Positions 7,159-20,246 of a stretch of DNA of 40,644 nucleotides are shown here, in pieces. The notes below the pieces were generated by a model that was not told the DNA's origin, made no database searches, and saw nothing but the letters and a program-made list of their open reading frames with translations. The DNA lies in UHGV virus genome UHGV-0357162. One strand, given 5' to 3'. Origin of the DNA: a virus. Position 1 is the first letter of the stretch, and every line of letters starts with the position of its first letter. Both the position numbers and the translations under genes were made by a program.

Positions 7159-7806
7159 TTATGCTGATTTCTTGTTTACAGGCTTAGTTTCTTGCTCCGG
7201 TGTGACGGGAACGCGATCACCTGGTGTTCCAGCACAGAAAATGGCTTTGGCGCGGCGCAAAATCTCTTTGTCATTTTCCTCATCGCCAGCTAATGCCATG
7301 CAAACAGCGTCTTTAAGCGATTGCCTGATGTTCAGGCTTTGAATGGCCTTCCTTTGCTCCTCAAGTTCGCTATCGGCTTGCTTAGTTTGCCTGGTGGGTT
7401 GCTGTAGGCGTTCCAAGATTCCTTTAATGCCCATATCGCATATTGCACTTATCAGTTGTTCCTTATCTTCTGTGGACGCTCTTTTCAATAACTCGTTAAC
7501 TAGCTCGTTTGTAATATCGGGAGAAGGCTGCGCTGTTTGATTTGATAGAGAACCTTCTTTGGCGGTGGGTTCCTCACCATAAGCGAGCCAATTTAAGCTC
7601 ACTTGTTCTTTATCTGAGATAAGACAAGCTATTTTAAAAGAAGGCTCTGTTCCTTTATGAATGTAGTTGTTTAAGGTTGAAGGGGGGATTCCCCAATCAC
7701 TCGCAGCAGTTCTGACACTACGGTTACCTATCAGCTTTACTAAACGCTCTCTGAAACTTTCTTTTCCCTGGTCGACAAAAGAAAAAGCATCATCATTTCT
7801 AGTCAT
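7159..7806 (-). CDS. prophage repressor (Mu c position), HTH DNA-binding protein
   Basis: 215 aa, transcribed divergently from the ner-like gene; N-terminal helix-turn-helix-like region SVRTAASDWGIPPSTLNNYIHKG. Confidence 0.55.
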   Translation of the reverse strand: MTRNDDAFSFVDQGKESFRERLVKLIGNRSVRTAASDWGIPPSTLNNYIHKGTEPSFKIACLISDKEQVSLNWLAYGEEPTAKEGSLSNQTAQPSPDITNELVNELLKRASTEDKEQLISAICDMGIKGILERLQQPTRQTKQADSELEEQRKAIQSLNIRQSLKDAVCMALAGDEENDKEILRRAKAIFCAGTPGDRVPVTPEQETKPVNKKSA

Positions 7807-7988: not shown

Positions 7989-8225
7989 ATGATGGTTAGA
8001 AATGAAGTAATGAACAAAGACTGGCACCGCGAGTACATCGTTGCCGCTGTGCACACCAAAGGTTTTACATTGCGTGAACTTTCTGAACGCGCTGGTCTAA
8101 AAAAAGACTCTTTAAAAAATGCACTGTATCGCTCATGCCCTAAATATGAACGCATCATAGCCGATGCTATTGGTGTGGAACCTGCGGAGATCTGGCCAAG
8201 CCGGTATGCCAGTAAGGCGGCGTAA
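7989..8225 (+). CDS. ner: Ner-like DNA-binding protein
   Basis: About 78 aa starting MMVRNEVMNKDWHREYIVAAVHTKGFTLRELSERAGL; position directly upstream of the transposase with TAATG overlap; the track N-terminal extension covers the operator. Confidence 0.7.
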   Translation: MMVRNEVMNKDWHREYIVAAVHTKGFTLRELSERAGLKKDSLKNALYRSCPKYERIIADAIGVEPAEIWPSRYASKAA

Positions 8226-10267
8226 TGTTTTATTCAGCCAATGAGCTGGCCGGTCTTCCTGGTTTGCCCGGTACAGTTCAGGGGGTGCGCTGGACGCTCA
8301 ATCGGATCACAGAGACGCACCCAGAATGGAAGCGCAAGCGCGAAGGCACCAAAGCATTCGAGTATCACATCGACTGCCTGCCCGCTGAAGCGCAGAAAGT
8401 TTTACGTAAGCGCCTGACTCATCAGGTCCTGGAAGATGCACAACTGCCCGCCGTAGTTGAGCAGAAAGCAGTTAAAAACGTCGCCGTTCGCGATGAACTG
8501 GAGGTGATGGTCAAATGCCCGGAGCTGGCATTACGCGAAGTCCAGTCACTGACCGACAAGCAAAAGGCCATCGCTGATGCGCGGATATTGCTGGCTACTG
8601 AAGTGCATAAGCTGCGCGAGTATGCCGGAATGACCAGGAAGGCCGCTTTAAAGCACATCGTTGATGGTGTGCGCATGGGGGCGTTACCTGACCGCATTAT
8701 CGAAGCAGCGAATACTGCAAATGCACGTCAGGGAAAGCGAACCGGTGTCAGCACCGGCAGCCTGGATAGCTGGTACTCCAGCTGGGTGATGGCGCGCGGT
8801 GATGCCAATCAGTTACTGGCGTTACTGGCTCCCGGTCATCATAAGGGAACACCGTGGGAGCAGGTCTGGTGGTTGAGCGATTTCTTTATGTTCTATCGCT
8901 CATGGAAGCGCCCGACTGTTGAATATGCGTATCGTGAGTTTTCAGCCTGGTGGCATGAAAAACACGCGAATGATGCGGGAATGCTGGCGGCACTGCCTTC
9001 AGTTCACGCAGTAAGACGGGTGTTAAGCAGCGTCCCGGTGATTGTTAAAGAGCGTTTCCGCTCCACCGGTTCAGCCTGGCGTTCGCTCAATCCCTTTGTG
9101 CGGCGCGACTGGACATCATTACCGGTTAATGCGGTATGGGTCGGGGATGGTCACTGTATGAAAATGACCGCGTTTAACCCCCTGACCGGCAATATTTTCC
9201 GGCCAGAAGTGACGCTGGTTATGGATGCGGGGCAACGCTTTGTTGTGGGCTGGTCACTGTCCCTGTCGGAGAACGTGATAGCCGTTGCTGATGCGTTACG
9301 TTACGGCATGGCGCAGCACGGGATACCGCTGATTTATTACTCCGATAACGGGGGCGGTGAAAAAAACCGGGTGCTTGATGCCGATATTACCGGGATTCTG
9401 CCCCGGCTGGGTGTGGAACATCACACGGGGATACCAGGTAACCCGCAGGGGCGCGGGGTGATTGAACGGGCAAACAAAGGAATACCCAAAGACGTGGCTC
9501 TGAGTTTCCAGACGTACTGCGCAAGGGATGCAGACAAGGAAACCGTAATGATGCAGCAACGGATTATGCAGTCAGCCATTAAGGCCACCCACAAAGGGAA
9601 AGAACTGACAAAACGGCAGGTTAAGGCGAGGGATGAAATCCCCACCTTTGAGCAACTGCTGGCAGCCATAGAGCTGGAGGTCAGACGCTATAACAACCGG
9701 CCACACAGCAGCCTACCCCGCAAAGAGGATGGCGAATATTACAGCCCGGCAGCGTATCGCCGGAAACTGATAAAAGAGCAGAATGTTGAAATTGATTTCC
9801 TGTCGCCGGAAGAACTGCATGAAATGTTCAGACCGGAAGTGACGCGCAAAACATTTCGCGGGGAAATTCAGTTATTCAACAATATTTATTACTCATATGA
9901 TCTGGCCGCAGAGCACGGGAATGAAGTCAGGGTCAGTTACGATATTCATGATGCAAACAGCGTCATTGTCCGGCGGGCTGATGGCTCTTATATCTGCGAT
10001 GCCATCTGGAACGGTAACAAGGTTGATGCCTTCGCTAAACCAGTTATCGAACAAAAACTGGAGAAACGCGTCAGGGGCCGCATTGCACGGGCTACGCAGA
10101 AAATCGAAGAGGCTAAACGCGAGCTTACCCCGGCTATTACGCAGAAGCCTGACTTTAATCTGGGATATGGACTGGAGCGCCCGGAGAAAAAGGAAAAAGA
10201 AGAACTTTATTTATTCGCATCTGAACGCGAGCGCAATTTAAAGAAAAACGGCACAAACAACCGTTAA
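8225..10267 (+). CDS. A: Mu A-type DDE transposase
   Basis: 680 aa; N-terminus ANELAGLPGLPGTVQGV resembles the MuA DNA-binding N-terminus; DDE-core-like VWVGDGHCMKM; followed by the MuB-like ATPase. Confidence 0.9.
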   Translation: MFYSANELAGLPGLPGTVQGVRWTLNRITETHPEWKRKREGTKAFEYHIDCLPAEAQKVLRKRLTHQVLEDAQLPAVVEQKAVKNVAVRDELEVMVKCPELALREVQSLTDKQKAIADARILLATEVHKLREYAGMTRKAALKHIVDGVRMGALPDRIIEAANTANARQGKRTGVSTGSLDSWYSSWVMARGDANQLLALLAPGHHKGTPWEQVWWLSDFFMFYRSWKRPTVEYAYREFSAWWHEKHANDAGMLAALPSVHAVRRVLSSVPVIVKERFRSTGSAWRSLNPFVRRDWTSLPVNAVWVGDGHCMKMTAFNPLTGNIFRPEVTLVMDAGQRFVVGWSLSLSENVIAVADALRYGMAQHGIPLIYYSDNGGGEKNRVLDADITGILPRLGVEHHTGIPGNPQGRGVIERANKGIPKDVALSFQTYCARDADKETVMMQQRIMQSAIKATHKGKELTKRQVKARDEIPTFEQLLAAIELEVRRYNNRPHSSLPRKEDGEYYSPAAYRRKLIKEQNVEIDFLSPEELHEMFRPEVTRKTFRGEIQLFNNIYYSYDLAAEHGNEVRVSYDIHDANSVIVRRADGSYICDAIWNGNKVDAFAKPVIEQKLEKRVRGRIARATQKIEEAKRELTPAITQKPDFNLGYGLERPEKKEKEELYLFASERERNLKKNGTNNR

Positions 10268-10285
10268 TTTAAAAGGTATTTAATT

Positions 10286-11179
10286 ATGAGTTTAATTACG
10301 CAATTAAATGACGTAATGGCCCGTCGCGGCTATACGCAGACCCACGTCGCCCGTGCTATTGGTCGTAGCAGCGCCGTTATCAACCAGTATTTACAGGGTA
10401 AATATCAGGGCGATATGGCTGATATTGAAGAACGCATTTCTGCCTTTGTGACCCGTGAGCGGGAAAAGGAAAACAGCCGCCGTATTAAAGCGAAATTTGT
10501 TGCCACCGGTATGGCTGCCAAAGGACTGGAAGTGCTGGCCTATGCTCACCTGGAATGTGAAATCTGCGTACTGTATGGCGCGGCAGGTCTTGGCAAAACA
10601 ATGATTCTGCGTGAATACGCCGCCAGAAACCGGGATGCGGTCCTGATTGAAGCTGACCCGGGCTATACAGCCAGAACACTGCTTGAGGAGCTGTGCCGCC
10701 AGCTGGGGGTAAAAGTTCGCGGCAATATCCACGAACTGATTGATGCATGTGTGCGAGAACTGCGTGATTCCGGTCGCCTGCTGATGGTGGACGAGGCTGA
10801 ACTGCTCCCCTATCGCGCACTGGAGGTTCTGCGCCGTCTGCATGACAAAGCGGGTATCGGGATTGTCCTGGCGGGTATGCCACGCCTTCTGATTAACCTC
10901 AAGGGACGTCGCGGTGAGTTCGCCCAGTTATACAGCCGTGTGGCGCTGGCGCTTAACCTGGGCGATACGCTGGCGCAGGAAGATTTTAACCAGATAGCCA
11001 CCGGGCTGATGCCGGAAGCAGCAGAACCGGAAATCAGCGAGGCGCTTTATACACGTTCGCTGGGTAATGCCCGCCGCCTGTTCAAACTGGCGCGTGGTGT
11101 GTACCGGATTTGTGATATCAGCGATGCACCGGTCAGTGTGCAGGCCATTGATAAATTCGCAGAAATGTTAATTCACTGA
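10286..11179 (+). CDS. B: Mu B-type AAA+ ATPase target DNA activator
   Basis: 297 aa; Walker A LYGAAGLGKT and Walker B LLMVDEAE; N-terminal HTH; immediately follows the transposase. Confidence 0.85.
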   Translation: MSLITQLNDVMARRGYTQTHVARAIGRSSAVINQYLQGKYQGDMADIEERISAFVTREREKENSRRIKAKFVATGMAAKGLEVLAYAHLECEICVLYGAAGLGKTMILREYAARNRDAVLIEADPGYTARTLLEELCRQLGVKVRGNIHELIDACVRELRDSGRLLMVDEAELLPYRALEVLRRLHDKAGIGIVLAGMPRLLINLKGRRGEFAQLYSRVALALNLGDTLAQEDFNQIATGLMPEAAEPEISEALYTRSLGNARRLFKLARGVYRICDISDAPVSVQAIDKFAEMLIH

Positions 11180-11418
11180 TGGAGAACAAGACGATGGACA
11201 AGCAGACCATTAACGCCGTCCGTTCCCGTGCCCGTGTGGCCATCCACACCACTGGTGGTCGTGTAACGGGACAACATCACCGTTTACCTGTGGTTTATGC
11301 CTGCCCGCCCGTGGGTGGTCCTGTATGGCCGGTAACGGAAATCATCCAGAGATTCAGCGGCCTGCGCCGCGTGGTGAAAACATCCTGTATCGACGGCTGC
11401 ACCGTCGTATGGCAATGA
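11179..11418 (+). CDS. hypothetical semi-early protein
   Basis: 79 aa ORF; ATG overlaps the MuB stop (TGATGG). Confidence 0.4.
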   Translation: MENKTMDKQTINAVRSRARVAIHTTGGRVTGQHHRLPVVYACPPVGGPVWPVTEIIQRFSGLRRVVKTSCIDGCTVVWQ

Positions 11419-11430
11419 GAGGAAATCAGA

Positions 11431-11646
11431 ATGGCGGTCAAGTTAGAAGTAATTATCTACACCGATGAAAACGGTACGCTTCGTGTCAGGAGCATGGGGG
11501 CTGTTGATAAAAAAGGATTTACGGATGAAGAGGTCGGGGTAAGACAACGGTTATGGGAGGTAATGAATCAAACGCTTAATAAAGAATTTAACGGCGTTGA
11601 TTTATTTTCTGTTGGCGTGGAACCCTGCGCACATAACACACATTAA
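11431..11646 (+). CDS. hypothetical semi-early protein
   Basis: 71 aa ORF with GAGG-type RBS. Confidence 0.4.
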   Translation: MAVKLEVIIYTDENGTLRVRSMGAVDKKGFTDEEVGVRQRLWEVMNQTLNKEFNGVDLFSVGVEPCAHNTH

Positions 11647-11675
11647 TCTGTAAATATCACTGAGGTAATTTAATT

Positions 11676-12320
11676 ATGACGACTGAAAATAAAGTTAAGC
11701 AATACACGAAAACTCAAGCGCCTGAAGGTTACTGGGTGGATGCCCGTGGCGTAATGACACCTGAAAGCCTTATCAAAGATATTGACCGCGACCGCGAGCA
11801 GCTGGTCGGTGAGATTGTGGAACTGGTGATTGCTGCCTCCGCCTCACTGCGTGAACTGAAACTACGTGCCTTTGGTGATATCCAGGCATTTATTGACCTG
11901 TCGGCGGAGAAATACGGCGCAGTGAAAGGTGGCAAAAAAGGCAATATCACGCTTTACAGCTTTGACGGGCGTTACAAGATTCAGCGCGCCATGCAGGACC
12001 GTATCGCGTTTGATGAACGCATTCAGACCGCGAAGTCGCTGATTGATGACTGTCTGGCTGACTGGACGGAAGGTGCGCGCCCTGAAATTAAAGCCATCAT
12101 TAGCGAGGCATTCAGCACGGACAAGGAAGGCAACATTAACACCGGGCGCGTTCTGGCCCTGCGTCGTCTGGAAATTGAGGACGAACGCTGGAATAACGCT
12201 ATGACGCTGATTGGTGAAGCCGTCCAGGTGATTGGCAGCAAGAGCTATATTCGTGTGTATGAGCGCGTCGGTGATTCTGATGAATACCGCGCAATCCCGC
12301 TTGATATTGCAGGGGTTTAA
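11676..12320 (+). CDS. Mu-like semi-early protein (DUF3164-like)
   Basis: 214 aa; size and position typical of DUF3164 proteins of Mu-like prophages; family assignment by recollection only. Confidence 0.45.
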   Translation: MTTENKVKQYTKTQAPEGYWVDARGVMTPESLIKDIDRDREQLVGEIVELVIAASASLRELKLRAFGDIQAFIDLSAEKYGAVKGGKKGNITLYSFDGRYKIQRAMQDRIAFDERIQTAKSLIDDCLADWTEGARPEIKAIISEAFSTDKEGNINTGRVLALRRLEIEDERWNNAMTLIGEAVQVIGSKSYIRVYERVGDSDEYRAIPLDIAGV

Positions 12321-12321
12321 C

Positions 12322-12555
12322 ATGCATCAGGATATCAAAGAGTACAGGGCCGGAAATAGTTGCGCGGCGTATTCGCTGGGCGCGTCCAGAGCAGAACAAC
12401 GCGGCGATTATGACGAGGCAGAAAAACTGTGGCGCAAGGCAGCGCAAAGCCCGTGTAGCACCCTGCGCCGCATCTGGGCTGAACATCGTGCGGAGTTCTG
12501 CGCTAACGCTCACCTGAAGGGCTGGAGGCCACGCCATGAATGCGAAGAACTTTAA
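12322..12555 (+). CDS. hypothetical small helical protein
   Basis: 77 aa from ATG 12322 (MHQDIKEYRAGNS...GDYDEAEKLWRKAAQS); the longer track ORF 12232..12555 overlaps the previous gene. Confidence 0.4.
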   Translation: MHQDIKEYRAGNSCAAYSLGASRAEQRGDYDEAEKLWRKAAQSPCSTLRRIWAEHRAEFCANAHLKGWRPRHECEEL

Positions 12556-12727
12556 TAAGCAGTATCCGGTAGGGACTCGCTTCATGCACACTGCACATCC
12601 GGCGTTGCGTGGTGGTCGTGTGGTGAAAACCGTTTCACCTGCCAGAGATTTTAAATGTGGTTGTGTGGTTGAAATTAATGTCGAGCCTTATTTCGTTAAA
12701 GTCGAAACACTGAAAGCAGCGCATTAA
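12536..12727 (+). CDS. hypothetical protein
   Basis: 63 aa ORF overlapping the upstream stop. Confidence 0.35.
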   Translation: MNAKNFNKQYPVGTRFMHTAHPALRGGRVVKTVSPARDFKCGCVVEINVEPYFVKVETLKAAH

Positions 12728-12756
12728 TTTAATTCAATTTTAATTGTTATTTAAAA

Positions 12757-12790
12757 CAGGCGTAAACCCGCCAGGGCTGGCTTACGCCTG
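12757..12790 (-). terminator. stem-loop terminator for the antisense gene 12831..13091
   Basis: CAGGCGTAA ... TTACGCCTG outer stem with inner GCCAG/CTGGC stem; T-rich run follows on the minus strand. Confidence 0.45.
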
Positions 12791-12830
12791 AATCAAGAGG
12801 ATTTATATATGAGAGATAAAATCTGGGGCT

Positions 12831-13091
12831 TTATTTATCCTCCGAAGGGGTTTGCAACGGTGTCTGCATCATTATCTCAATCTGTTTTAAATGAGAGAGA
12901 ACGTGTGAAGAGGCCACTGTCTCACCAATATCAGAAAGTCGTTTTACAGCCTGCTGTAACTGGTAAGAAAGAATAGATAAATCGAGAGAGCCCTGGATTT
13001 GCAGGGCTCTGACGGTAGCCAGCCACACGTAATGTGATGCCAGAACTTTTTCATCGGTTGGTGTGAAATCAGGAGTTTCGTTTTTATTCAT
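12831..13091 (-). CDS. hypothetical small protein encoded antisense to the early operon (moron)
   Basis: 86 aa from MNKNETPDF with AAGAGG RBS; AT-rich flanks; divergent from 13177..13893. Confidence 0.45.
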   Translation of the reverse strand: MNKNETPDFTPTDEKVLASHYVWLATVRALQIQGSLDLSILSYQLQQAVKRLSDIGETVASSHVLSHLKQIEIMMQTPLQTPSEDK

Positions 13092-13176
13092 AAAACCTCT
13101 TATTACTTCAACTGAAAAAGAAAACATCACATTACTTAATTTTCTTGCATGAAAAAATGATCGAAAACAACAGGTT

Positions 13177-13893
13177 ATGAACATGAAAGATAAATACATT
13201 GCCAAAATTAAAAAGCTGTTACGCCTTGCAAGAGGAACATCAAGCCCGGAAGAAGCCGCTAACGCTATTGCAAAAGTCCAGGCTTATATGCGCCAGCATG
13301 GCATCAGCGAAAACGACGCGGAATTGTTCGACATTCAGGAAGCTGCCAGCGCAGGTGCGCCGAGTGATGCCAGTACACCGCCGCGTTATATGCACATCCT
13401 GTGTGACCTGGTCTGTAAAGCCTTCGGTGTCGAGTGTTACATCTCCGGCGAATACCGGGCTTCTGGTTCACTCAAACGTTACGTGCGTTTTTATGGTCCT
13501 GACAGTCGCCCGGAAATTGCGGCATACGCGTTTGATGTGCTTTCCCGTCAGATGATGGCTGAACGCAAGAAATATCAGGATAAACACTGCAAACGTTGCG
13601 GCCCGTCCACGCGGGTGGCCCGTGGCGACCAGTTCTGCGAAGGCTGGGTCTTTGGTGCCCGTGATGTCATTGCGGTGTATGACGTCTCCCCGGAAGAAAA
13701 AAGCCGCCTTGAGCTTTACAGAAAGAACCTGCACAGCACTAAGGGACTGCGCGACGGGGATATGCGCACAGCTAAAGCGTGTCGGGGTGCAGAGTTTGCC
13801 GCTACTGCCGGTTTTATCGCCGGGAAAAACGCCAGGCTGCATCAGGGGGTTAATGGTCAGAGCAACAGACCGCTGGCACTGGGGAGGGGGTAA
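13177..13893 (+). CDS. DUF2786-like protein with Cys-rich zinc-finger-like region
   Basis: N-terminus IAKIKKLLRLARGTSSPEEAANAIAKVQAYM matches the DUF2786 pattern; CKRCGP ... C motif; 238 aa. Confidence 0.5.
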   Translation: MNMKDKYIAKIKKLLRLARGTSSPEEAANAIAKVQAYMRQHGISENDAELFDIQEAASAGAPSDASTPPRYMHILCDLVCKAFGVECYISGEYRASGSLKRYVRFYGPDSRPEIAAYAFDVLSRQMMAERKKYQDKHCKRCGPSTRVARGDQFCEGWVFGARDVIAVYDVSPEEKSRLELYRKNLHSTKGLRDGDMRTAKACRGAEFAATAGFIAGKNARLHQGVNGQSNRPLALGRG

Positions 13894-13895
13894 CG

Positions 13896-14123
13896 ATGGC
13901 TTTTAAACTTCTCAGTGTTACCGAAGCAATATACCAGCCTCCCGGAGAACGCCACGAATACAGGATGAATGACGGTAGCGCGGCGGTTGAGTTCCCTAAA
14001 TATCCGGGGGATTCCCGGTGGCGGTTCTATGACAGTGCGGGACGCCGGATTATTAAAAGAACCGTGCACAACGCCATGAAAGCCGCTGTAGAACGTCACA
14101 AAAGGAGGTTTAACTGCAAATGA
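13896..14123 (+). CDS. hypothetical protein
   Basis: 75 aa ORF in operon context. Confidence 0.35.
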   Translation: MAFKLLSVTEAIYQPPGERHEYRMNDGSAAVEFPKYPGDSRWRFYDSAGRRIIKRTVHNAMKAAVERHKRRFNCK

Positions 14124-14344
14124 ATATTGAATTTTATGACTACGGAGTCACCGCAAAAATTATTGTTACCTGCTGGTTCTGGGAGTTCCGCCGCTATTGC
14201 CGGGTTGTGGATGCGGCGCTGTTTGTGGCACCTGAAGTGCGCCATCAGAGTGGCGGTGGCCTTTTAATGAAAACCGTCATCACCGGTAAAACGGTTCCGA
14301 TGTTACGGGCGTTTAAAGTGGCAAAACAGGAGGCGGCGCAGTGA
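14120..14344 (+). CDS. hypothetical protein
   Basis: 74 aa ORF overlapping the upstream stop. Confidence 0.35.
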   Translation: MNIEFYDYGVTAKIIVTCWFWEFRRYCRVVDAALFVAPEVRHQSGGGLLMKTVITGKTVPMLRAFKVAKQEAAQ

Positions 14345-14529
14345 ACCAGCAAACCAGAATAAGCGAGAAGAGCCTGACCAGACTGATTGCCGATGCGGAC
14401 AAGGTGCTGGAGCGGAACACCCCCGTTGCCGATGAGGAATGGTGGCAGGATTTCCGGGCCGCAATGCTGGAACTTCAGGAACGCCGCAGGGCTGGTAGCG
14501 CAGAGCCGATAGTAAATACAGGGGAATGA
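14341..14529 (+). CDS. hypothetical protein
   Basis: 62 aa ORF overlapping the upstream stop. Confidence 0.35.
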   Translation: MNQQTRISEKSLTRLIADADKVLERNTPVADEEWWQDFRAAMLELQERRRAGSAEPIVNTGE

Positions 14530-14533
14530 AACG

Positions 14534-14710
14534 ATGAAAAACCGTAAAGCAAAACGACTTCTTTTACAGCGACCTGTGCGTGTAGTGGAGCTGGTTATCA
14601 GCAACCATAAGATAGCGGTACTCCATCCATTTGGTCAGGTGGCTTTTGCCGCAAAGCGTAAGCCTACTGCGTCACAGAACAGGCGGAATAAAGGGTACGC
14701 AGTACGATGA
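14534..14710 (+). CDS. small basic protein, tandem copy 1 (58 aa)
   Basis: MKNRKAKRLLLQRPVRVVELVISNHKIAVLHPFGQVAFAAKRKPTASQNRRNKGYAVR; AGGGGAA RBS; first 22 nt near-identical to copy 2. Confidence 0.3.
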   Translation: MKNRKAKRLLLQRPVRVVELVISNHKIAVLHPFGQVAFAAKRKPTASQNRRNKGYAVR

Positions 14711-14883
14711 AAAACCGTAAGGCAAAAATTCTGTTAGCTCGCAGAAACGGCTTTGATGTCTGGCGATGGTTGAGGATTAGTAACAGACGAGTGAGATTGA
14801 CGGGGTGTTGCGGGGTGATGGGGCACAGTTGTTGCAAAAAGCCCAGCGCGGCGCAAAACCGCAGGAAAAATCACGGTATGTAA
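14707..14883 (+). CDS. small basic Cys-rich protein, tandem copy 2 (58 aa)
   Basis: MKNRKAKILLARRNGFDVWRWLRISNRRVRLTGCCGVMGHSCCKKPSAAQNRRKNHGM; ATGA overlap with copy 1. Confidence 0.3.
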   Translation: MKNRKAKILLARRNGFDVWRWLRISNRRVRLTGCCGVMGHSCCKKPSAAQNRRKNHGM

Positions 14884-14895
14884 AGGAGGTACCAG

Positions 14896-15306
14896 GTGAA
14901 GAAAATGATTTTTGTGGCGGCATTGCTAACCATTACCCAACATACGCAGGCTTCAGCAGTTATTGTGGCATCTGCCGCTGCGACCACGGCTGCTGTAGCT
15001 GCTGCAAACTCTGCGAATATCGCAAGCCAACAGGAGCGGGATGCTGCTAACGCATCAGCCAGTGCTCTCCCGATTTCTGTTAAGGGCAGTAAGCAACATC
15101 TGGGGTTCATAACGTGCGGTAAGCGTTCTTATGAAGCTGTAGGCTCACTGGGATGTACGGTATATGGCGACAGTGAGAGCAGAGAAATTCCATGGAAAAC
15201 GTGGCCCGGATACGTTCTTGGCTCGAAGCTCCCGGCCAGTTATGAGGTAAACGCCGTGTCGTTTGATCACTATAACGGCGTGGCAACTGTCTATTTCACA
15301 TACTGA
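14896..15306 (+). CDS. secreted protein with signal peptide (moron-like)
   Basis: GTG start after AAGGAGG RBS; MKKMIFVAALLTITQHTQASA signal peptide; Ala/Thr-rich linker; two Cys pairs. Confidence 0.5.
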   Translation: MKKMIFVAALLTITQHTQASAVIVASAAATTAAVAAANSANIASQQERDAANASASALPISVKGSKQHLGFITCGKRSYEAVGSLGCTVYGDSESREIPWKTWPGYVLGSKLPASYEVNAVSFDHYNGVATVYFTY

Positions 15307-15411
15307 GGCCCGGCATGAAATTTTCTGAATCACGGAGCAACAACACGATGAAAGCCATCACCGTAACTCGACGTTCCTGATTTCGCGGGTTGTTTAAACA
15401 GTAATCAAATG

Positions 15412-15457
15412 CAGACCAAAACATGTGTTTTGGTCTGCCAAAAGTGATGTTTTGGTC
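15412..15457. promoter_or_regulatory. operator-like array: perfect 26-bp palindrome CAGACCAAAACATGTGTTTTGGTCTG plus a third TGTTTTGGTC half-site 11 bp downstream
   Basis: Perfect dyad 15412..15437 and direct repeat 15448..15457, spaced about two helical turns; overlaps the start of the next ORF. Confidence 0.4.
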
Positions 15458-15739
15458 ATTATGAAGATTGAACAAATCGGAATGGCAGCTTTCAGGCAAC
15501 AGGCTGAAAGCGGTGGCGTGGATGAGTTCGTCGTGCAGCGGTTCGGTGGTGTGTATCACCTCTTCGCTGTGAATCGCCACGCCGGGGTGTCCTATTTTCT
15601 ACAGGAACGCCGTGGCGATTACAAGACGTGGCTGTCTCTTGATCGTGCCGCCACGTTCCTGTCAGGAATTGGCGTTTCACGTTTTACCGTGCGTTTTGAG
15701 GATAACAAACATGCTGAAAAAGATGATCGGAGCCATTAA
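15425..15739 (+). CDS. hypothetical protein (start uncertain: GTG 15425 or ATG 15461)
   Basis: Track ORF; the 5' end overlaps the palindrome, so ATG 15461 (MKIEQIG) may be the real start. Confidence 0.35.
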   Translation: MFWSAKSDVLVIMKIEQIGMAAFRQQAESGGVDEFVVQRFGGVYHLFAVNRHAGVSYFLQERRGDYKTWLSLDRAATFLSGIGVSRFTVRFEDNKHAEKDDRSH

Positions 15740-16106
15740 AGCCGGTCAGGCGTATCTGGGGTGGGATGATGTCCTTTATCGCCAGACGCTGGCCCGCCTG
15801 ACCGGTAAAACCAGCACCACACGCTGCAACCTCGATGAACTGCGCATCATCCGGGAATACATGCACGAACAGGGATTTCCGCGCAAGGCCCCCGCCGGTA
15901 AAGGTCGCCGCCCTCGTGTTGCAATGAGCAGAAAATCGGTATTATCCAAAATTGAAGCGTTGCTGGCTGATGCCGGTCGTTCCTGGGCGTATGCAGAAGG
16001 ACTGGCATCTCACATGTATAAGCAACATGTGATCGAATGGCTGACGGATGAACAGCTTTTTGGGGTGATGGTGGCGCTGGTTAAAGATTCAAGGAGACGT
16101 AAATGA
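15711..16106 (+). CDS. gemA: GemA-like (Mu gp16 family, DUF1018) protein
   Basis: Start MLKKMIGAIKAGQAYLGWDDVLYRQTLARLTGKTS matches the conserved N-terminal pattern of GemA/gp16-family proteins; the longer track ORF starts at 15612. Confidence 0.55.
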   Translation: MLKKMIGAIKAGQAYLGWDDVLYRQTLARLTGKTSTTRCNLDELRIIREYMHEQGFPRKAPAGKGRRPRVAMSRKSVLSKIEALLADAGRSWAYAEGLASHMYKQHVIEWLTDEQLFGVMVALVKDSRRRK

Positions 16107-16441
16107 AAAAACTGTTATTACTTATTCTGGCTTTATGTTTTACAGGAATATCCCATGCTTCTGATTCTGAGGAAGATTTGATCAAAAAAACATTACAGGG
16201 CGATTATCAGGCACAACGTAATCTGGCTTATTCATACATGAATGGCTGGGATGATATTTCAAAGGATACCATCAGAGGATGCGCTCTCAGGAAGGTTATT
16301 CTCTTAACACAAGCCCAAGCTGACATTGGCGATTATGGAAATGAAGCCATAGATTGCCGAAAAGTGCATCCAACAGATAACCAGAAAGTATGGGAGTATG
16401 TCAGAGGATACCTGGTGTTGATAAACGAGAATAAAAAATAA
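16103..16441 (+). CDS. secreted small protein with signal peptide (moron)
   Basis: MKKLLLLILALCFTGISHA signal peptide; AT-rich; followed by its own terminator. Confidence 0.5.
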   Translation: MKKLLLLILALCFTGISHASDSEEDLIKKTLQGDYQAQRNLAYSYMNGWDDISKDTIRGCALRKVILLTQAQADIGDYGNEAIDCRKVHPTDNQKVWEYVRGYLVLINENKK

Positions 16442-16453
16442 TATGAACAAAAA

Positions 16454-16477
16454 CCTTCGCAAACGCGGAGGTTTTTT
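16454..16477 (+). terminator. rho-independent terminator after the secreted-protein moron
   Basis: CCTTCGC-aaac-GCGGAGG stem (one G-U pair) followed by TTTTTT. Confidence 0.5.
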
Positions 16478-16483
16478 ATGGTC

Positions 16484-16511
16484 TGTACAGGCGATCATGT
16501 ATGGCTATAAT
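16484..16511 (+). promoter_or_regulatory. candidate sigma70 promoter for the mor-like gene
   Basis: TGTACA, 16-nt spacer, TATAAT, about 30 nt upstream of the ATG at 16541. Confidence 0.3.
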
Positions 16512-16540
16512 AACAGTAAGTTATTACCGGAGACGCCATC

Positions 16541-17008
16541 ATGCAGACCTTCAGTGAAACAGATCTTCGCGATGCGCAGGCACTGCTGCCCGATTCCGTG
16601 CAGCAACTGATTAGCGTGATTGGCTTCCCCGCCCTGACCCGGTTAATCCGTTCTTTTGGTGGCGTGACGTTAAGCGGTAAAACCGGCGCACACGCCGAAC
16701 GCACCGGCGGCGTCCATGCCCTGTTACATGATGTTCTGACCGAAGACGAAATCAACAAACTGATCCGCTTTCTTGGCGGTGCTCCGTTTTACATTCCCCG
16801 TTGCGATCATGCGTTACGTGCCCTGCGTAACACCCGTTTTATGGCTGATTTACAGCAGCATGTAAAAGACGGATGCTCACACCGGCAGGCGCTGGCACTG
16901 CTCTGTCCCCGTTACGGCATTTCAGACCGGTACGCATGGCAGCTGATACACCGACGACAAAAACAGACTTCGCTGAAAAGCCCCACCCAGGTGGGGCTTT
17001 TTGATTAA
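16541..17008 (+). CDS. mor: Mor/C-family transcriptional activator
   Basis: 155 aa; position after the GemA-like gene; C-terminal HTH-like region (RQALALLCPRYGISDRYAWQLIHRRQ) as in the Mu Mor/C family. Confidence 0.6.
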   Translation: MQTFSETDLRDAQALLPDSVQQLISVIGFPALTRLIRSFGGVTLSGKTGAHAERTGGVHALLHDVLTEDEINKLIRFLGGAPFYIPRCDHALRALRNTRFMADLQQHVKDGCSHRQALALLCPRYGISDRYAWQLIHRRQKQTSLKSPTQVGLFD

Positions 17009-17034
17009 TGGGCCTCAGAAAAAAGGAGACACTT

Positions 17035-17313
17035 ATGACCAACTATATGGCACTTGGCGAGTATACGGCCTACTCAGAGCAGGCCCGGGATGCTGCCGGA
17101 CGTCGCTTTGCTTATATGAAAAATTTGGCCAGTCAGTTAAACCGAATGGCCGAACAACCGGATATGGTTGTTCAGGAAGAAGCGTTGCAGTGTGCCATTG
17201 CTGACATCATCGCCAGCGAAAACGAGATGCGCGCAGCGATGGAAAAGGCGAACGCCTCTGCTCCGCTTTGTAATAAACCTCTTATTACGCCGGATTCTCT
17301 TTCCCGCTTCTGA
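17035..17313 (+). CDS. hypothetical protein
   Basis: ATG at 17035 (MTNYMALGEY) preceded by AAGGAG; the track ORF starts at 17008. Confidence 0.4.
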   Translation: MTNYMALGEYTAYSEQARDAAGRRFAYMKNLASQLNRMAEQPDMVVQEEALQCAIADIIASENEMRAAMEKANASAPLCNKPLITPDSLSRF

Positions 17314-17335
17314 TTTATCACCCCGCCGCCGCGGG

Positions 17336-17360
17336 GTGCTGAACTCCCCCAGCAGTACCC
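17336..17360 (+). promoter_or_regulatory. conserved late-promoter box, copy 1 (GTGCTGAACTCCCCCAGCAGTACCC), upstream of the lysis cassette
   Basis: One of three copies of GTGCTGAAC(A/T)CCC(T/C)CA found upstream of late operons. Confidence 0.45.
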
Positions 17361-17495
17361 ACCACACCAGACCGTTTACCCTGTCCACTCAGACCACAAG
17401 GTACCTTAAGGGATAGCGCCCTGCAAAAGGCTTTTGTGCCTTTGACAGGGTGTTATTTACGGGCCGTCAGTGGCTCAGATTTACAGGAGAAACTC

Positions 17496-17888
17496 ATGTC
17501 TGAACCCTTATCAGGCGGCGGAGCTGTGGCAGTCACCATCGGTGGTGCCAGTGTGTTTGGCCTTCTCACCAATACCGATTTCGGGGTCGTGGTGGGCGCG
17601 TTTGCCGGGGCGCTTTTTGTTGTCACGCAGCAGAAAGAAATCCCGGTATGGCGAATGGCCATCCACCTGCTCGTCGCGTTTGTGGTTGGCGTTCTGGGGG
17701 CTGGTGTGGCTGCGTCACTGATGCAGTGGCTGACCCACTACAACGACAAACCGCTCGATGCATTGTGTGCGGTCGGTGTCTCTGCTTTATCCATCAAGAT
17801 ACTGACTTTTCTTTATCAACAGGAAATTTCATCGCTGTTCGGCCTGTTTTCCAGACTGCGCGGCGGAGGGGGTGGAAATGGAAAGTAG
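17496..17888 (+). CDS. membrane protein, holin-like (lysis cassette)
   Basis: ATG after AGGAGA RBS; about 130 aa with three hydrophobic segments and a Gly-rich charged C-terminus; directly upstream of the endolysin. Confidence 0.45.
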   Translation: MSEPLSGGGAVAVTIGGASVFGLLTNTDFGVVVGAFAGALFVVTQQKEIPVWRMAIHLLVAFVVGVLGAGVAASLMQWLTHYNDKPLDALCAVGVSALSIKILTFLYQQEISSLFGLFSRLRGGGGGNGK

Positions 17889-18156
17889 CCTTGCCGGTAT
17901 CGTGAACGTCTGGCTGTGTCTCGCCATTGTGCTGGGGTTGTTTGTGTATCGCCGCCACGGTGCGGCGCATAAACCGATGATTACCTGGTTGGCGTACTGG
18001 CTGATGCTCGGCTACATCATCATCCCGTTCCGCTGGCTGTCCGGTACATACACGCACTCCAGCTGGCTGGTTGTGGCGCTGAATCTGGTTTTCTGTGCGC
18101 TTATCGTGTGGGCGCACGGGAATTTGTCAAAAATCCTTTCGTTATTGCGGAGGTGA
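17878..18156 (+). CDS. membrane protein (holin/antiholin-like)
   Basis: 92 aa, strongly hydrophobic with several Trp; GGAGG RBS; overlaps the end of the previous gene. Confidence 0.4.
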   Translation: MESSLAGIVNVWLCLAIVLGLFVYRRHGAAHKPMITWLAYWLMLGYIIIPFRWLSGTYTHSSWLVVALNLVFCALIVWAHGNLSKILSLLRR

Positions 18157-18158
18157 AT

Positions 18159-18536
18159 ATGTCGGGAAAATTCCGTTTCAGTCAACGTAGCGAAAAAAAT
18201 CTGGCTGGCGTAAAGCCACAACTGGTGGCGGTTGTACGCCGTGCACTGGCGTTGTCGGACGTCGATTTTGGTATTACCGAAGGTTTACGCACGAAAGAAC
18301 GTCAGAAACAACTTGTCGCTGAAGGCAAGAGCCAGACCATGAACAGCCGTCACCTTACTGGCGATGCCGTTGATGTCGTGGCTTACGTTGGTAGCACCAT
18401 TTCATGGGACTGGCCGTTATACGAAAAAATCGCCCGTGCCTTTAAACAGGCTGCCGCAGAACTGGGTGTCGCCATCGAATGGGGCGGAGACTGGAAAACG
18501 CTGAAAGACGGGCCTCATTTCCAGTTAAAACGCTGA
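18159..18536 (+). CDS. endolysin, peptidase M15 family
   Basis: Start MSGKFRF after GGAGGTG RBS; zinc-ligand motifs SRHLTGDAVD and DGPHFQ typical of M15 peptidases. Confidence 0.75.
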   Translation: MSGKFRFSQRSEKNLAGVKPQLVAVVRRALALSDVDFGITEGLRTKERQKQLVAEGKSQTMNSRHLTGDAVDVVAYVGSTISWDWPLYEKIARAFKQAAAELGVAIEWGGDWKTLKDGPHFQLKR

Positions 18537-18549
18537 TTCGGGACGGGTT

Positions 18550-18732
18550 ATGAACAGAAGTCACTGGACCCACAGAACGCCACGTAAAGCCGCGCGCTGT
18601 GTTCTGGCCCTGTTTCTGATGATGTTGCTTCCGGTGGGATGCACAGACATTAACAGAGCGGGCCAGCTGTTTGACGCGGCGGCGCAGGTCTGCCGGATTA
18701 TTGACGGTATCCGGCAGTGTTCGCAGAACTGA
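18550..18732 (+). CDS. putative lipoprotein (o-spanin-like)
   Basis: 60 aa; hydrophobic leader ending in lipobox-like PVGC; immediately after the endolysin. Confidence 0.35.
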   Translation: MNRSHWTHRTPRKAARCVLALFLMMLLPVGCTDINRAGQLFDAAAQVCRIIDGIRQCSQN

Positions 18733-18752
18733 TTTTTTGAAGGTCTGACACG

Positions 18753-18959
18753 GTGAGCATTATCAGATTTACAGAATACACAGGTTCAGGAGGTGCTGGC
18801 GCTGTCATGGTGCTCGCTGAACGCATCACCCATTTTTACCGTCAGTACGGTACACATGATGGCACAGTCATTGAACTGGATACCGGGAAAAACGTGTTCG
18901 TTCTTGAAAATCCCGACGAAGTTCAGCGCAGGATTGAACAGGCTCAGAAGGACACTTAA
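18753..18959 (+). CDS. hypothetical protein
   Basis: 68 aa ORF between the lysis genes and the gp27-like gene. Confidence 0.35.
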   Translation: MSIIRFTEYTGSGGAGAVMVLAERITHFYRQYGTHDGTVIELDTGKNVFVLENPDEVQRRIEQAQKDT

Positions 18960-19459
18960 TGGCGTGGTCACAGGATATCAGGGACAAAGTCCGTAACGGG
19001 TACATCTTTGACCAGCTTCCGCTGGATATCGTCGCCATGAAGTACGCCGTGCCGCACGATACCGCGCGGCGCTGGAAAACGCAGGCGATGAAGAACGGCG
19101 ACGACTGGGACAAGCTGCGGGCCGCGCACGCGCTCGCCGGTGACGGGCTGGAAAGTGTCGCCCGCACCGTGCTTATCAGTCTGGTGGTGAAGTGTCAGAC
19201 GACGCTTGAACGGCTGAACCAGAACCCGGACATCCCGCCGCAGGAGTCCGTCGAACTGCTGGCGAGTCTGTCCGACAGTCTCAGTAAGGCGGTGGCCAGT
19301 AGCAAAAAAATCCTGCCGGAAACCGACCGGCTCGCCACGGCACTGGAAGTGGTGCAGCGGCTCGGCGCGTTCATCAAGGAGCGTCACCCGGCACAGTATG
19401 CCGCGTTCCTTGAGGTGCTCGAAGGCTTCGCTAAAGAGCTTGAGGATAATTTCAGTTAA
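18959..19459 (+). CDS. Mu gp27-like protein (DUF1804), putative terminase small subunit
   Basis: 166 aa; conserved position upstream of the large terminase in Mu-like phages. Confidence 0.5.
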   Translation: MAWSQDIRDKVRNGYIFDQLPLDIVAMKYAVPHDTARRWKTQAMKNGDDWDKLRAAHALAGDGLESVARTVLISLVVKCQTTLERLNQNPDIPPQESVELLASLSDSLSKAVASSKKILPETDRLATALEVVQRLGAFIKERHPAQYAAFLEVLEGFAKELEDNFS

Positions 19460-19505
19460 CCACAGCGGCCCGGTTTTCCGGGCCGTCTGATATTCGGGAT
19501 TTGTA

Positions 19506-20246
19506 ATGCAAAAACAGATTATTGGTAACGCAACGTTGTATTGCGGTGATGTTCTTGATGTGCTGCCGGCGTTATCCGAACGTTTTGATGCCGTCATTAC
19601 CGACCCGCCTTACAGCAGTGGTGGCACACACAAATCAGACCGCAGCATGGCCCCTTCGGACAAGTATGTCGGTCACACCCAGTATGCCGAGTTCACCGGC
19701 GATAACCGCGACCAGCGCAGCTGGGCGTTCTGGTGTTCCATGTGGATATCTCATGCATTGCACAGACTGAATCCCGGCGGTTATTTCATGGTGTTCAGTG
19801 ACTGGCGACAACTACCGGCGCTTACCGATGCATTTCAGGCCGGTGGTGTGCTGTGGCGCGGTCTGGTTGTCTGGGATAAAACGCTTGCTTCCCGTGCGCC
19901 ACACACCGGCTATTTCCGGCATCAGGCCGAGTATGTGGTCTGGGGCAGCAACGGAAAACTCGACAAATGTCCGCACGGTGGCCCGTTCCCGGGCGTGATT
20001 ACGCAGCGTGTTGTCCCGTCCGAAAAACTGCACATGACCGCAAAGCCGGTTCAGCTGATGGCCGAGCTGGTTAAACCGCTGGCACCGGATGCGCACGTCC
20101 TCGATCCGTTTATGGGAAGCGGCACCACCGCCATCCCTGTACTTGCCCGTGGCGGACGGTTTACCGGCATTGAAATGACTAACCAGTATTTTGATATCGC
20201 CTGCGCACGTCTCGAAAAAGCGCAGGCAGAAGCAGCGCAGGTGTGA
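19506..20246 (+). CDS. DNA methyltransferase, beta-class (N6-adenine or N4-cytosine)
   Basis: DPPY catalytic motif near residue 33 and AdoMet motif DPFMGSGTT near residue 203, i.e. motif IV before motif I. Confidence 0.75.
   Translation: MQKQIIGNATLYCGDVLDVLPALSERFDAVITDPPYSSGGTHKSDRSMAPSDKYVGHTQYAEFTGDNRDQRSWAFWCSMWISHALHRLNPGGYFMVFSDWRQLPALTDAFQAGGVLWRGLVVWDKTLASRAPHTGYFRHQAEYVVWGSNGKLDKCPHGGPFPGVITQRVVPSEKLHMTAKPVQLMAELVKPLAPDAHVLDPFMGSGTTAIPVLARGGRFTGIEMTNQYFDIACARLEKAQAEAAQV

Follow-up and report, generated by a model that had tools for sequence, protein, structure and literature searches.

Two adjacent small open reading frames (ORFs) in the virus genome UHGV-0357162, analysed here over its whole stretch of 40,644 nucleotides (nt; the window), raise the question of whether they are genuine genes, whether they are the product of a local duplication and what their products could do. 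The initial annotation had described two 58-codon basic ORFs linked by an ATGA stop/start overlap, and both are confirmed: ORF-A (14534..14710, + strand; isoelectric point (pI) 12.0, net charge +14) and ORF-B (14707..14883, +; pI 11.8, net charge +15), with the translations MKNRKAKRLLLQRPVRVVELVISNHKIAVLHPFGQVAFAAKRKPTASQNRRNKGYAVR and MKNRKAKILLARRNGFDVWRWLRISNRRVRLTGCCGVMGHSCCKKPSAAQNRRKNHGM, respectively. Its two further observations, QNRR(N/K) tails in both ORFs and a CCGVMGHSCC string in ORF-B, hold as well. In brief, ORF-A and ORF-B are real, ancient paralogues, members of types A and B of the family phrog_1380 of very basic proteins of about 58-67 amino acids (aa), acquired together as a cassette; this overall reading is held with moderate confidence, and the nucleic-acid-binding accessory role that it includes, taken alone, with rather low confidence.

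The coding tests covered 104 copies of the family (57 distinct DNA sequences) from 87 sources; besides the window, these were phage records, Escherichia coli genomes and 80 IMG/VR loci. The family frame on the + strand is the sole one of the six frames that is open in all 57 distinct variants, across types A to E. The ratio of nonsynonymous to synonymous polymorphism (pN/pS), for which distinct mutations were counted against the consensus of each type, is 0.24 in type B (27 variants), 0.31 in type C and 0.51 in type A, and third codon positions vary most (14, 9 and 26 variable sites at the first, second and third positions in type B; 9, 9 and 23 in type C). Indeed, types B and C have 9 synonymous polymorphisms and 0 nonsynonymous ones in their first 10 codons, which argues that the peptide of the shared start is constrained, not the nucleotide string. 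An antisense ORF (14664-14837, -) was also considered and rejected; its pN/pS of 0.33 is a shared wobble position effect, and stop codons break it up in types A and C as well as in 10 of the 27 type B variants. Comparison of the reading frame across homologues, the check that had been proposed for distinguishing genes from a non-coding duplicated element, thus found a conserved frame under purifying selection, and this substitution pattern argues that ORF-A and ORF-B are both real protein-coding genes.

A near-identical start of 22 nt had been noted in the two ORFs; the shared start is real, and its length is 24 nt. This direct repeat, with the common sequence ACGATGAAAAACCGTAA[A/G]GCAAAA, is composed of ACG and the first seven codons (MKNRKAK) and lies at 14531..14554 (+) and 14704..14727 (+), i.e. 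2 copies found against 0 expected in 100 dinucleotide-preserving shuffles of the window with 3 mismatches allowed. As read from the sequence, a Shine-Dalgarno (SD)-like AGGGGA (14520..14525, +) is located 8 nt 5' of the ORF-A ATG, and a weak SD-like AAAGGG (14690..14695, +), within the ORF-A tail at the K-G codons of KGYAVR, is located 11 nt 5' of the ORF-B ATG. The ATGA overlap itself (14707..14710, +) joins the ORF-A stop to the ORF-B start, and an ATGA overlap is also found at every tandem family junction in other phages. The weak SD of ORF-B and the overlap together suggest translational coupling to ORF-A. The two ORFs would be transcribed with the early operon, ORF-A being translated from its own SD and ORF-B by termination-reinitiation at the ATGA overlap.

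Both proteins match the phrog_1380 profile of 62 positions from end to end: ORF-A with an E-value of 2.1e-22 (residues 1-58 on profile positions 1-60) and ORF-B with an E-value of 8.4e-28 (residues 1-57 on positions 1-57). The PHROG annotation of this family is 'unknown function', and membership was defined empirically by three motifs, M(K/N)NRKA(K/R)xLL, (I/V/L)SN(R/H)(R/K) and K(P/R)(S/T)A(A/S)QNR(W/R)KNH in diverse members, together with a length of about 55-70 aa. ORF-A and ORF-B, each of 58 aa, carry all three motifs, which are retained in members from other genera at about 40% identity. Other examples of phrog_1380 are PhiV10p50 (phiV10), FDJ53_gp057 (RCS47), F366_gp07 (TL-2011c) and the C-terminal part of VT2-Sap08. 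Start (MKNRKAK), turn (SN(R/H)(R/K)) and tail (KPSAAQNR) are common to these and to the window ORFs, and the ATGA-linked tandem of the window recurs in several phrog_1380 phages. No usable match for the family was obtained in Pfam (even at E<=10 with 28 diverse members), NCBIfam, PADLOC or the sequences of the PDB. Membership of the pair in a characterised family is not supported; on every testable criterion the pair falls within phrog_1380; the profile matches and motifs identify ORF-A and ORF-B as new members of this catalogued but uncharacterised family.

The family has a narrow distribution. Two single-sequence queries retrieved 25 and 13 clusters at 90% identity and the profile retrieved 100; the protein clusters are limited to Escherichia, Salmonella, Citrobacter and Enterobacter, 44 family representatives were found among 1.84 billion proteins, and no relatives were found among the GTDB species representatives. 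At the level of phage records, tblastn detected a family member in 143 of 50,697, all of them phages of Enterobacteriaceae and including 933W, VT2-Sakai, phiV10, HK225, D6 and Sasha. DNA-level matches are present in 483 of 5,426 complete E. coli genomes (about 9%), and more than half of the matching places are on plasmids, presumably P1-like phage-plasmids. No published description of the family was found: a text search of two papers on the exo-xis region (PMC8614690, PMC10789677) gave no trace of these ORFs, and no literature was found for VT2-Sap08, PhiV10p49/50 or MKNRKAK.

Within the family, types A, B, C, D and E and more distant ones are set apart by their middle segment. Single copies are the commonest arrangement, the sampled loci comprising 35 with a single C, 34 with a single B, 8 B-E, 4 A-C, 4 A-B, 1 A-E and 1 with a single D. 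Type A comes first and is followed by another member in 9 of the 9 A-containing sampled arrays and in 10 of 10 further places retrieved with an A-type protein (19 of 19 in total); the following member is B, C or E, in P1-like, Shiga toxin (Stx)-lambdoid and Mu-like phages. When ORF-A and ORF-B of the window are compared with each other, the body has reached saturation at synonymous sites (pS 0.88-1.04), pN is 0 at the N-terminus, and the C-terminal block has a pN of 0.26 and a pS of 0.87. In comparisons of type A with the other types, this block shows a pS of 0.73-0.87 and a pN of 0.26-0.30, and such high pS with low pN indicates conservation at the protein level. The saturation of synonymous sites points to an ancient paralogous couple and not to a recent local duplication. 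The diverged tandem duplication of the initial annotation hence holds in so far as the two are tandem paralogous coding genes, but it was neither local nor recent, as shown by the body pS and by the sharing of the pair types across phages; by this measure ORF-A and ORF-B are ancient paralogues.

The stretch 14529-14874 is the sole part of the interval 9000-20000 with megablast similarity to deposited phages. Its matches are found in P1-like RCS47, in Stx2c phages, in TL-2011b/c and in phiV10, that is in P1-like, Stx-lambdoid and epsilon15-like phages, and they span positions 230-575 of a query covering 14300-15100, starting 5 nt 5' of the ORF-A ATG and reaching codon 56 of ORF-B. These matches define a mobile two-gene module, ORF-A plus ORF-B (14529..14874, +), and the junction of the mosaic with the Mu-like backbone lies just 3' of the conserved C-terminal block of ORF-B. 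In related Mu-like prophages, the same slot holds a single B, a single D together with an Ea22-like gene, or other genes. As the A-type is paired with B, C or E across unrelated phages, what was acquired is a pre-existing cassette of two genes; the megablast pattern indicates that a cassette of ~350 bp moved as a unit into a Mu-like early accessory slot, and that it moves between unrelated temperate phages. The window cassette differs from other phrog_1380 members in its residence in a Mu-like transposable prophage, theirs being lambdoid, P1-like or epsilon15-like phages, and in its short context-specific tail (…KNHGM, then stop).

The ends of the genes show a further regularity. The tail after …KNH varies with the genomic context (GM, LRTKGE or TNAK, each followed by the stop codon), and it is KKGYAVR and stop whenever another family copy comes next. 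In phiV10, the first copy (p50, locus L003, 3004-3186) has a B-type body and an A-type tail (…SQNRRKKGYAVR, then stop), with the crossover inside the conserved AAGCCCAGCGCG block; the copy after it is of type E. This recombinant is direct evidence of exchange between paralogues. Tail variation and the phiV10 recombinant together show that the conserved ends are both functionally constrained and sites of module exchange.

Between these ends lies a variable segment. In ORF-B it is a hypervariable central loop (codons 29-44; 14791..14838, +), followed by the conserved C-terminal block KKPSAAQNRRKNH (14839..14874, +). In ORF-A, alignments place it at codons ~27-42 (14612..14659, +), with approximate limits because ORF-A is two residues short relative to ORF-B, and the conserved C-terminal block KPTASQNRRNK, recognised from alignments and pN/pS, follows at 14660..14692 (+). 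In types B and C, codons 29-44 hold 31 nonsynonymous and 12 synonymous polymorphisms, against 29 and 40 elsewhere in the gene (Fisher p=0.003). The pN/pS of the loop is about 0.7-0.8; between types it is about 0.8 with saturated pS, and within types it is also below 1. Positive selection in the loop is not demonstrated, since pN/pS stays below 1 despite the significant enrichment relative to the rest of the gene; the counts are those of a relaxed or diversifying loop flanked by invariant ends. The description of the pair as rapidly evolving accordingly applies to the central loop only, the termini being among the most constrained parts. The CCGVMGHSCC string of ORF-B lies within this hypervariable loop; CC of the cluster is replaced by FL in the STEC313 orthologue (L004), the closest one, and by CR in another prophage (L005); other types have unrelated residues at this place, and types A, D and E are without the cluster.

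As regards function, pI is 11.3-12.0 across types and the net charge is +12 to +15 in about 60 residues; it can be argued that a net charge of +14 or +15 over 58 residues needs a polyanion partner. With a diverse alignment, AlphaFold2 (AF2) predicted a helix-strand-strand-strand-helix arrangement with basic terminal helices. The best guess, and a rather uncertain one, is that each protein is a nucleic-acid-binding mini-protein, expressed early and translationally coupled. In such a scheme, the two basic terminal helices (MKNRKAK... and ...SAAQNR(W/R)KNH) would make generic nucleic-acid contacts, a small beta-sheet would bear the hypervariable loop, which would tune target specificity, and the always-upstream A-type copy may act with the downstream copy, e.g. 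as a hetero-oligomer. The likely role of the pair would then be to modulate, at an early stage of infection or induction, nucleic-acid transactions of the host or of the phage, with host takeover, a developmental decision or counter-defence as possible outlets; an anti-defence or host-takeover role is plausible from the genomic context. A bolder version, which we consider rather speculative, is that phages of unrelated lineages (Mu-like, lambdoid, P1-like, epsilon15-like) swap loop variants of modular 'specificity-cassette' mini-proteins in an arms race: an invariant basic scaffold (MKNRKAK... / ...SAAQNRWKNH) would carry a loop directed at host nucleic-acid or defence targets, the A-type would be the obligate hetero-oligomer partner of B, C or E, and recombination would take place at the ends.

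Several points weigh against a functional, nucleic-acid-binding pair. The AF2 model has low confidence (predicted local distance difference test, pLDDT, 69; predicted template modelling score, pTM, 0.39), and a shallower alignment gave a different, all-helical model with a meaningless long helix. No significant fold or sequence match to any nucleic-acid-binding family was obtained in library and structure searches, and the high positive charge equally fits binding to an acidic protein or to a membrane. Relaxed constraint on the loop, instead of positive selection, may account for its variability. Many of the sampled loci are closely related, and the polymorphism counts and the tally of type A always coming first are not phylogenetically independent. 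Finally, frameshifts, truncations or fusions affect several of the database members (P0004-6, P0017, P0019, P0073), which shows that some lineages can dispense with the gene.

Other explanations of the pair were weighed against these data. The proteins could bind an acidic protein, such as a host defence or regulatory factor, the loop tracking variants of the target, and so act as anti-defence or host-takeover inhibitors. The early accessory regions that house the genes (exo-xis, nin, Mu semi-early) do abound in such functions, genes for Ea22-like and DUF551 proteins are among their neighbours, as is an Anti-RecBCD_p2 gene in one locus, and a variable loop between invariant ends would suit such a target; yet no anti-defence or defence model was matched in PADLOC and the structure search revealed no similarity to known inhibitors. 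Moreover, phage proteins that inhibit DNA-binding enzymes by binding to them are typically acidic and mimic DNA, in contrast to the basic proteins of this family, and this explanation is considered unlikely. Mu and lambdoid phages carry kil-type genes in this segment of the early operon, and very cationic small products encoded there could also be small toxic Kil-like peptides that harm the host envelope, nucleoid or division on expression of the early operon; the frequent frameshifted or truncated database copies would fit counter-selection of a toxic gene. The proteins have no hydrophobic or amphipathic membrane segment (grand average of hydropathy, GRAVY, -0.5 to -0.96), however, purifying selection persists in resident prophages and no similarity to known toxins was found with Pfam and PADLOC, all of which makes a Kil-like action distinctly improbable. 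A type II toxin-antitoxin pair was rejected, ORF-A and ORF-B being equally basic members of the same family with no significant toxin-antitoxin match in PADLOC or Pfam, and it is also disfavoured by single copies being commonest.

Alternatively, the peptides could be of little function, the ORFs being passengers or coupling spacers that relay ribosomes downstream. ATGA overlaps tie them to their neighbours in all contexts, annotation pipelines often omit them, and dispensable variants exist; but amino acids are kept where synonymous sites are saturated, both at the N-terminus and in the C-terminal block, the first 10 codons are free of nonsynonymous changes and the motifs survive at about 40% identity in other genera, so that a spacer role is very unlikely. 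That the locus is a duplicated non-coding element, a regulatory site or a small RNA in which the ORFs are incidental, might be suggested by the near-exact 24-nt direct repeat and by conserved ends that are near-identical as DNA between some types. This is contradicted by codon-periodic substitutions, by the single frame open in all variants and by the synonymous changes tolerated within the repeat. Furthermore, the Rfam covariance search gave no relevant match to the pair at E<=1, folding of either strand is no better than that of shuffles (z 0.07 and 0.38), and neither a promoter-like site nor a convincing terminator was flagged beside ORF-A and ORF-B. The four cysteines of CCGVMGHSCC could make ORF-B a zinc or iron-sulfur protein; their replacement or absence in the relatives rules out a conserved metal site, and no zinc-ribbon or other metal-site family was matched in Pfam. 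Both readings are effectively excluded, the non-coding one having very little probability left and the metal-cluster one slightly less.

The candidate nucleic-acid-binding pair was also compared with known small proteins of early phage operons. The lambdoid exo-xis region encodes Orf60a, Orf63, Orf61, Orf73/TraR-like, Ea8.5 and Orf55 (PMC8614690), which are similar in size to the family (50-90 aa) and constitute an accessory, non-essential and variable set with duplications. The family member of Stx phages lies directly 3' of ea22, in the same region transcribed from pL, whereas in 933W the exo-xis small proteins form a block upstream of ea22; this placement, together with the division into a conserved block and a variable set in PMC8614690, would assign the family to the variable part. 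A relationship with lambda Orf55 was rejected (hhalign probability 0.13%), and Orf55, the one exo-xis protein checked, with three strands and one helix predicted, is acidic, unlike the extremely positively charged family. No Pfam match links the family to DUF1317, DUF1382 or TraR. Arginine-rich motif (ARM) peptides (lambda N, P22 N, HK022 Nun) resemble the family as short, strongly basic R/K/Q/N/W-rich segments encoded in early operons, and we take …AAQNRWKNH to be similar in composition to …AEKQAQWKAAN of lambda N. Homology to ARM antiterminators was undetectable in any library searched, and the family has a predicted beta-sheet core that ARM peptides lack. N proteins are longer and act via nut/boxB sites and Nus factors. 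Resemblance to NUMOD4, AP2 (integrase arm-type) or ARM, which is backed by no search, is treated here as a lead only.

In other phages, the recurring setting of the family is an early-expressed accessory region. In 933W and VT2-Sakai, a family member is encoded directly 3' of ea22 in the exo-xis region, which is transcribed early from pL (PMC8614690). In prophages of Citrobacter, Enterobacter and Salmonella, distant members are encoded in the nin region, with the replication genes on one side and NinB/E/G on the other; Ea22-like coiled-coil genes and DUF551 are their neighbours, and each member overlaps the adjoining genes by 4 nt at either end. In lambdoid, P1-like and phiV10 contexts, an Arg-rich ORF of 51-58 aa usually precedes the array (about 70 of 87) with an ATGA overlap (outside the window, at L003 2831-3007, L087 3349-3504 and L001 2834-3010). 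Its tail is MRVACIGLLPYPTRFWASALIAKPHVLMADNIIPAPKRRHTGIAAARRAAKRRRRAKR followed by the stop codon, its pI is 12, and its frame is kept in clearly diverged versions, which suggests that it is probably a real gene; it is unannotated in some records (e.g. RCS47, 933W). This ORF is not an obligatory partner, being absent from the distant Citrobacter, Enterobacter and Salmonella contexts and from the window, whose cassette differs in this respect from the phages where it is usual.

The window is a Mu-like prophage, and the semi-early Mu-like setting assigned by the initial annotation is borne out by genes encoding MuA transposase (8225-10267), a MuB-like ATPase (10286-11179), DUF3164 (11676-12320), GemA (15612-16106) and Mor (16541-17008), followed downstream of Mor by Mu portal and Mu F; a CI-type repressor is encoded at 7159-7806 (-). 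The pair lies in the distal early ('semi-early') operon, in a slot between a DUF2786 gene and gemA, within a chain of overlapping or tightly packed small ORFs. The closest complete genome is that of E. coli STEC313, whose prophage is 97.6% identical over 14300-15100, and the full arrangement of the window is common to just 5 of the 5,426 complete E. coli genomes. A 62-aa acidic ORF (pI 4.9, phrog_14672; 14341-14529, +; stop at 14527-14529) ends 4 nt 5' of ORF-A and has a GTGA overlap with the preceding ORF at its start. This ORF stands beside the A-B cassette in four Mu-like instances (window, L004, L008, L009), and other phage types are without it. In sister Mu-like prophages, the DUF2786-gemA slot (L005 2541-3323, L006 2541-4008) is variable and holds lambdoid-type 'ea' genes, namely DUF4752, Ea22-like and a single B- or D-type family member; from this content it appears that transposable and lambdoid phages exchange genes in their early accessory regions.

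Other features of this segment were also recorded. Directly 3' of the pair, a 136-aa ORF (14896-15306, +) with a strong SD (AAGGAGG) encodes a protein with a signal peptide of the Sec type (MKKMIFVAALLTITQHTQASA). The ORF has a match in phrog_8805 and none in Pfam or NCBIfam, an E. coli plasmid (H44) is similar to part of it, and its product may be a secreted or periplasmic protein from the Mu-like early operon. Between gemA and mor, a 112-aa ORF (16103-16441, +), in ATGA overlap with the gemA stop, also encodes a signal peptide (MKKLLLLILALCFTGISHA) and has no match in Pfam or NCBIfam. A perfect palindrome with a 12-bp stem, GCAGACCAAAACACATGTTTTGGTCTGC (15411-15438), flagged as minus-strand terminator-like, lies between the 136-aa signal-peptide ORF and gemA, inside a poorly resolved stretch where ORFs of the two strands overlap.

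Annotation of the family is inconsistent, its genes being systematically overlooked or wrongly called. PGAP calls copy B alone in STEC313 (L004 2735-2911), RefSeq calls copy A alone in RCS47 (L001 3180-3368 is among the inconsistently annotated members), and no member is called in 933W (L087 3501-3689). In VT2-Sakai, the call is an over-extended ORF of 155 aa (VT2-Sap08; L098 322-789), the C-terminus of which is the family member. Of phrog_12350 (155 positions) and phrog_9263 (230 positions), just a portion of each is matched by the family, and these look in part like over-extensions or fusions; a database protein of 119 aa (P0073) is an A+C frameshift fusion. The coding evidence justifies annotating both copies.

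In summary, as matters stand, ORF-A and ORF-B are ordinary hypothetical accessory genes whose evolution shows a few tidy features. What is new here is the coding proof, the old mobile two-gene cassette with its type-A-first rule, the design of conserved ends and a variable loop with recombination at the ends, and the widespread mis-annotation. The cassette is one of few DNA segments common to Mu-like, lambdoid/Stx, P1-like and epsilon15-like E. coli phages, and this sharing makes it convenient for tracing how genes of early accessory regions pass from one lineage to another. If the proteins are indeed binders of nucleic acids or defence targets with a swappable loop, they would offer a very small and tractable scaffold among early phage effectors, one that is also present in Shiga-toxin phages, where the exo-xis region affects induction.

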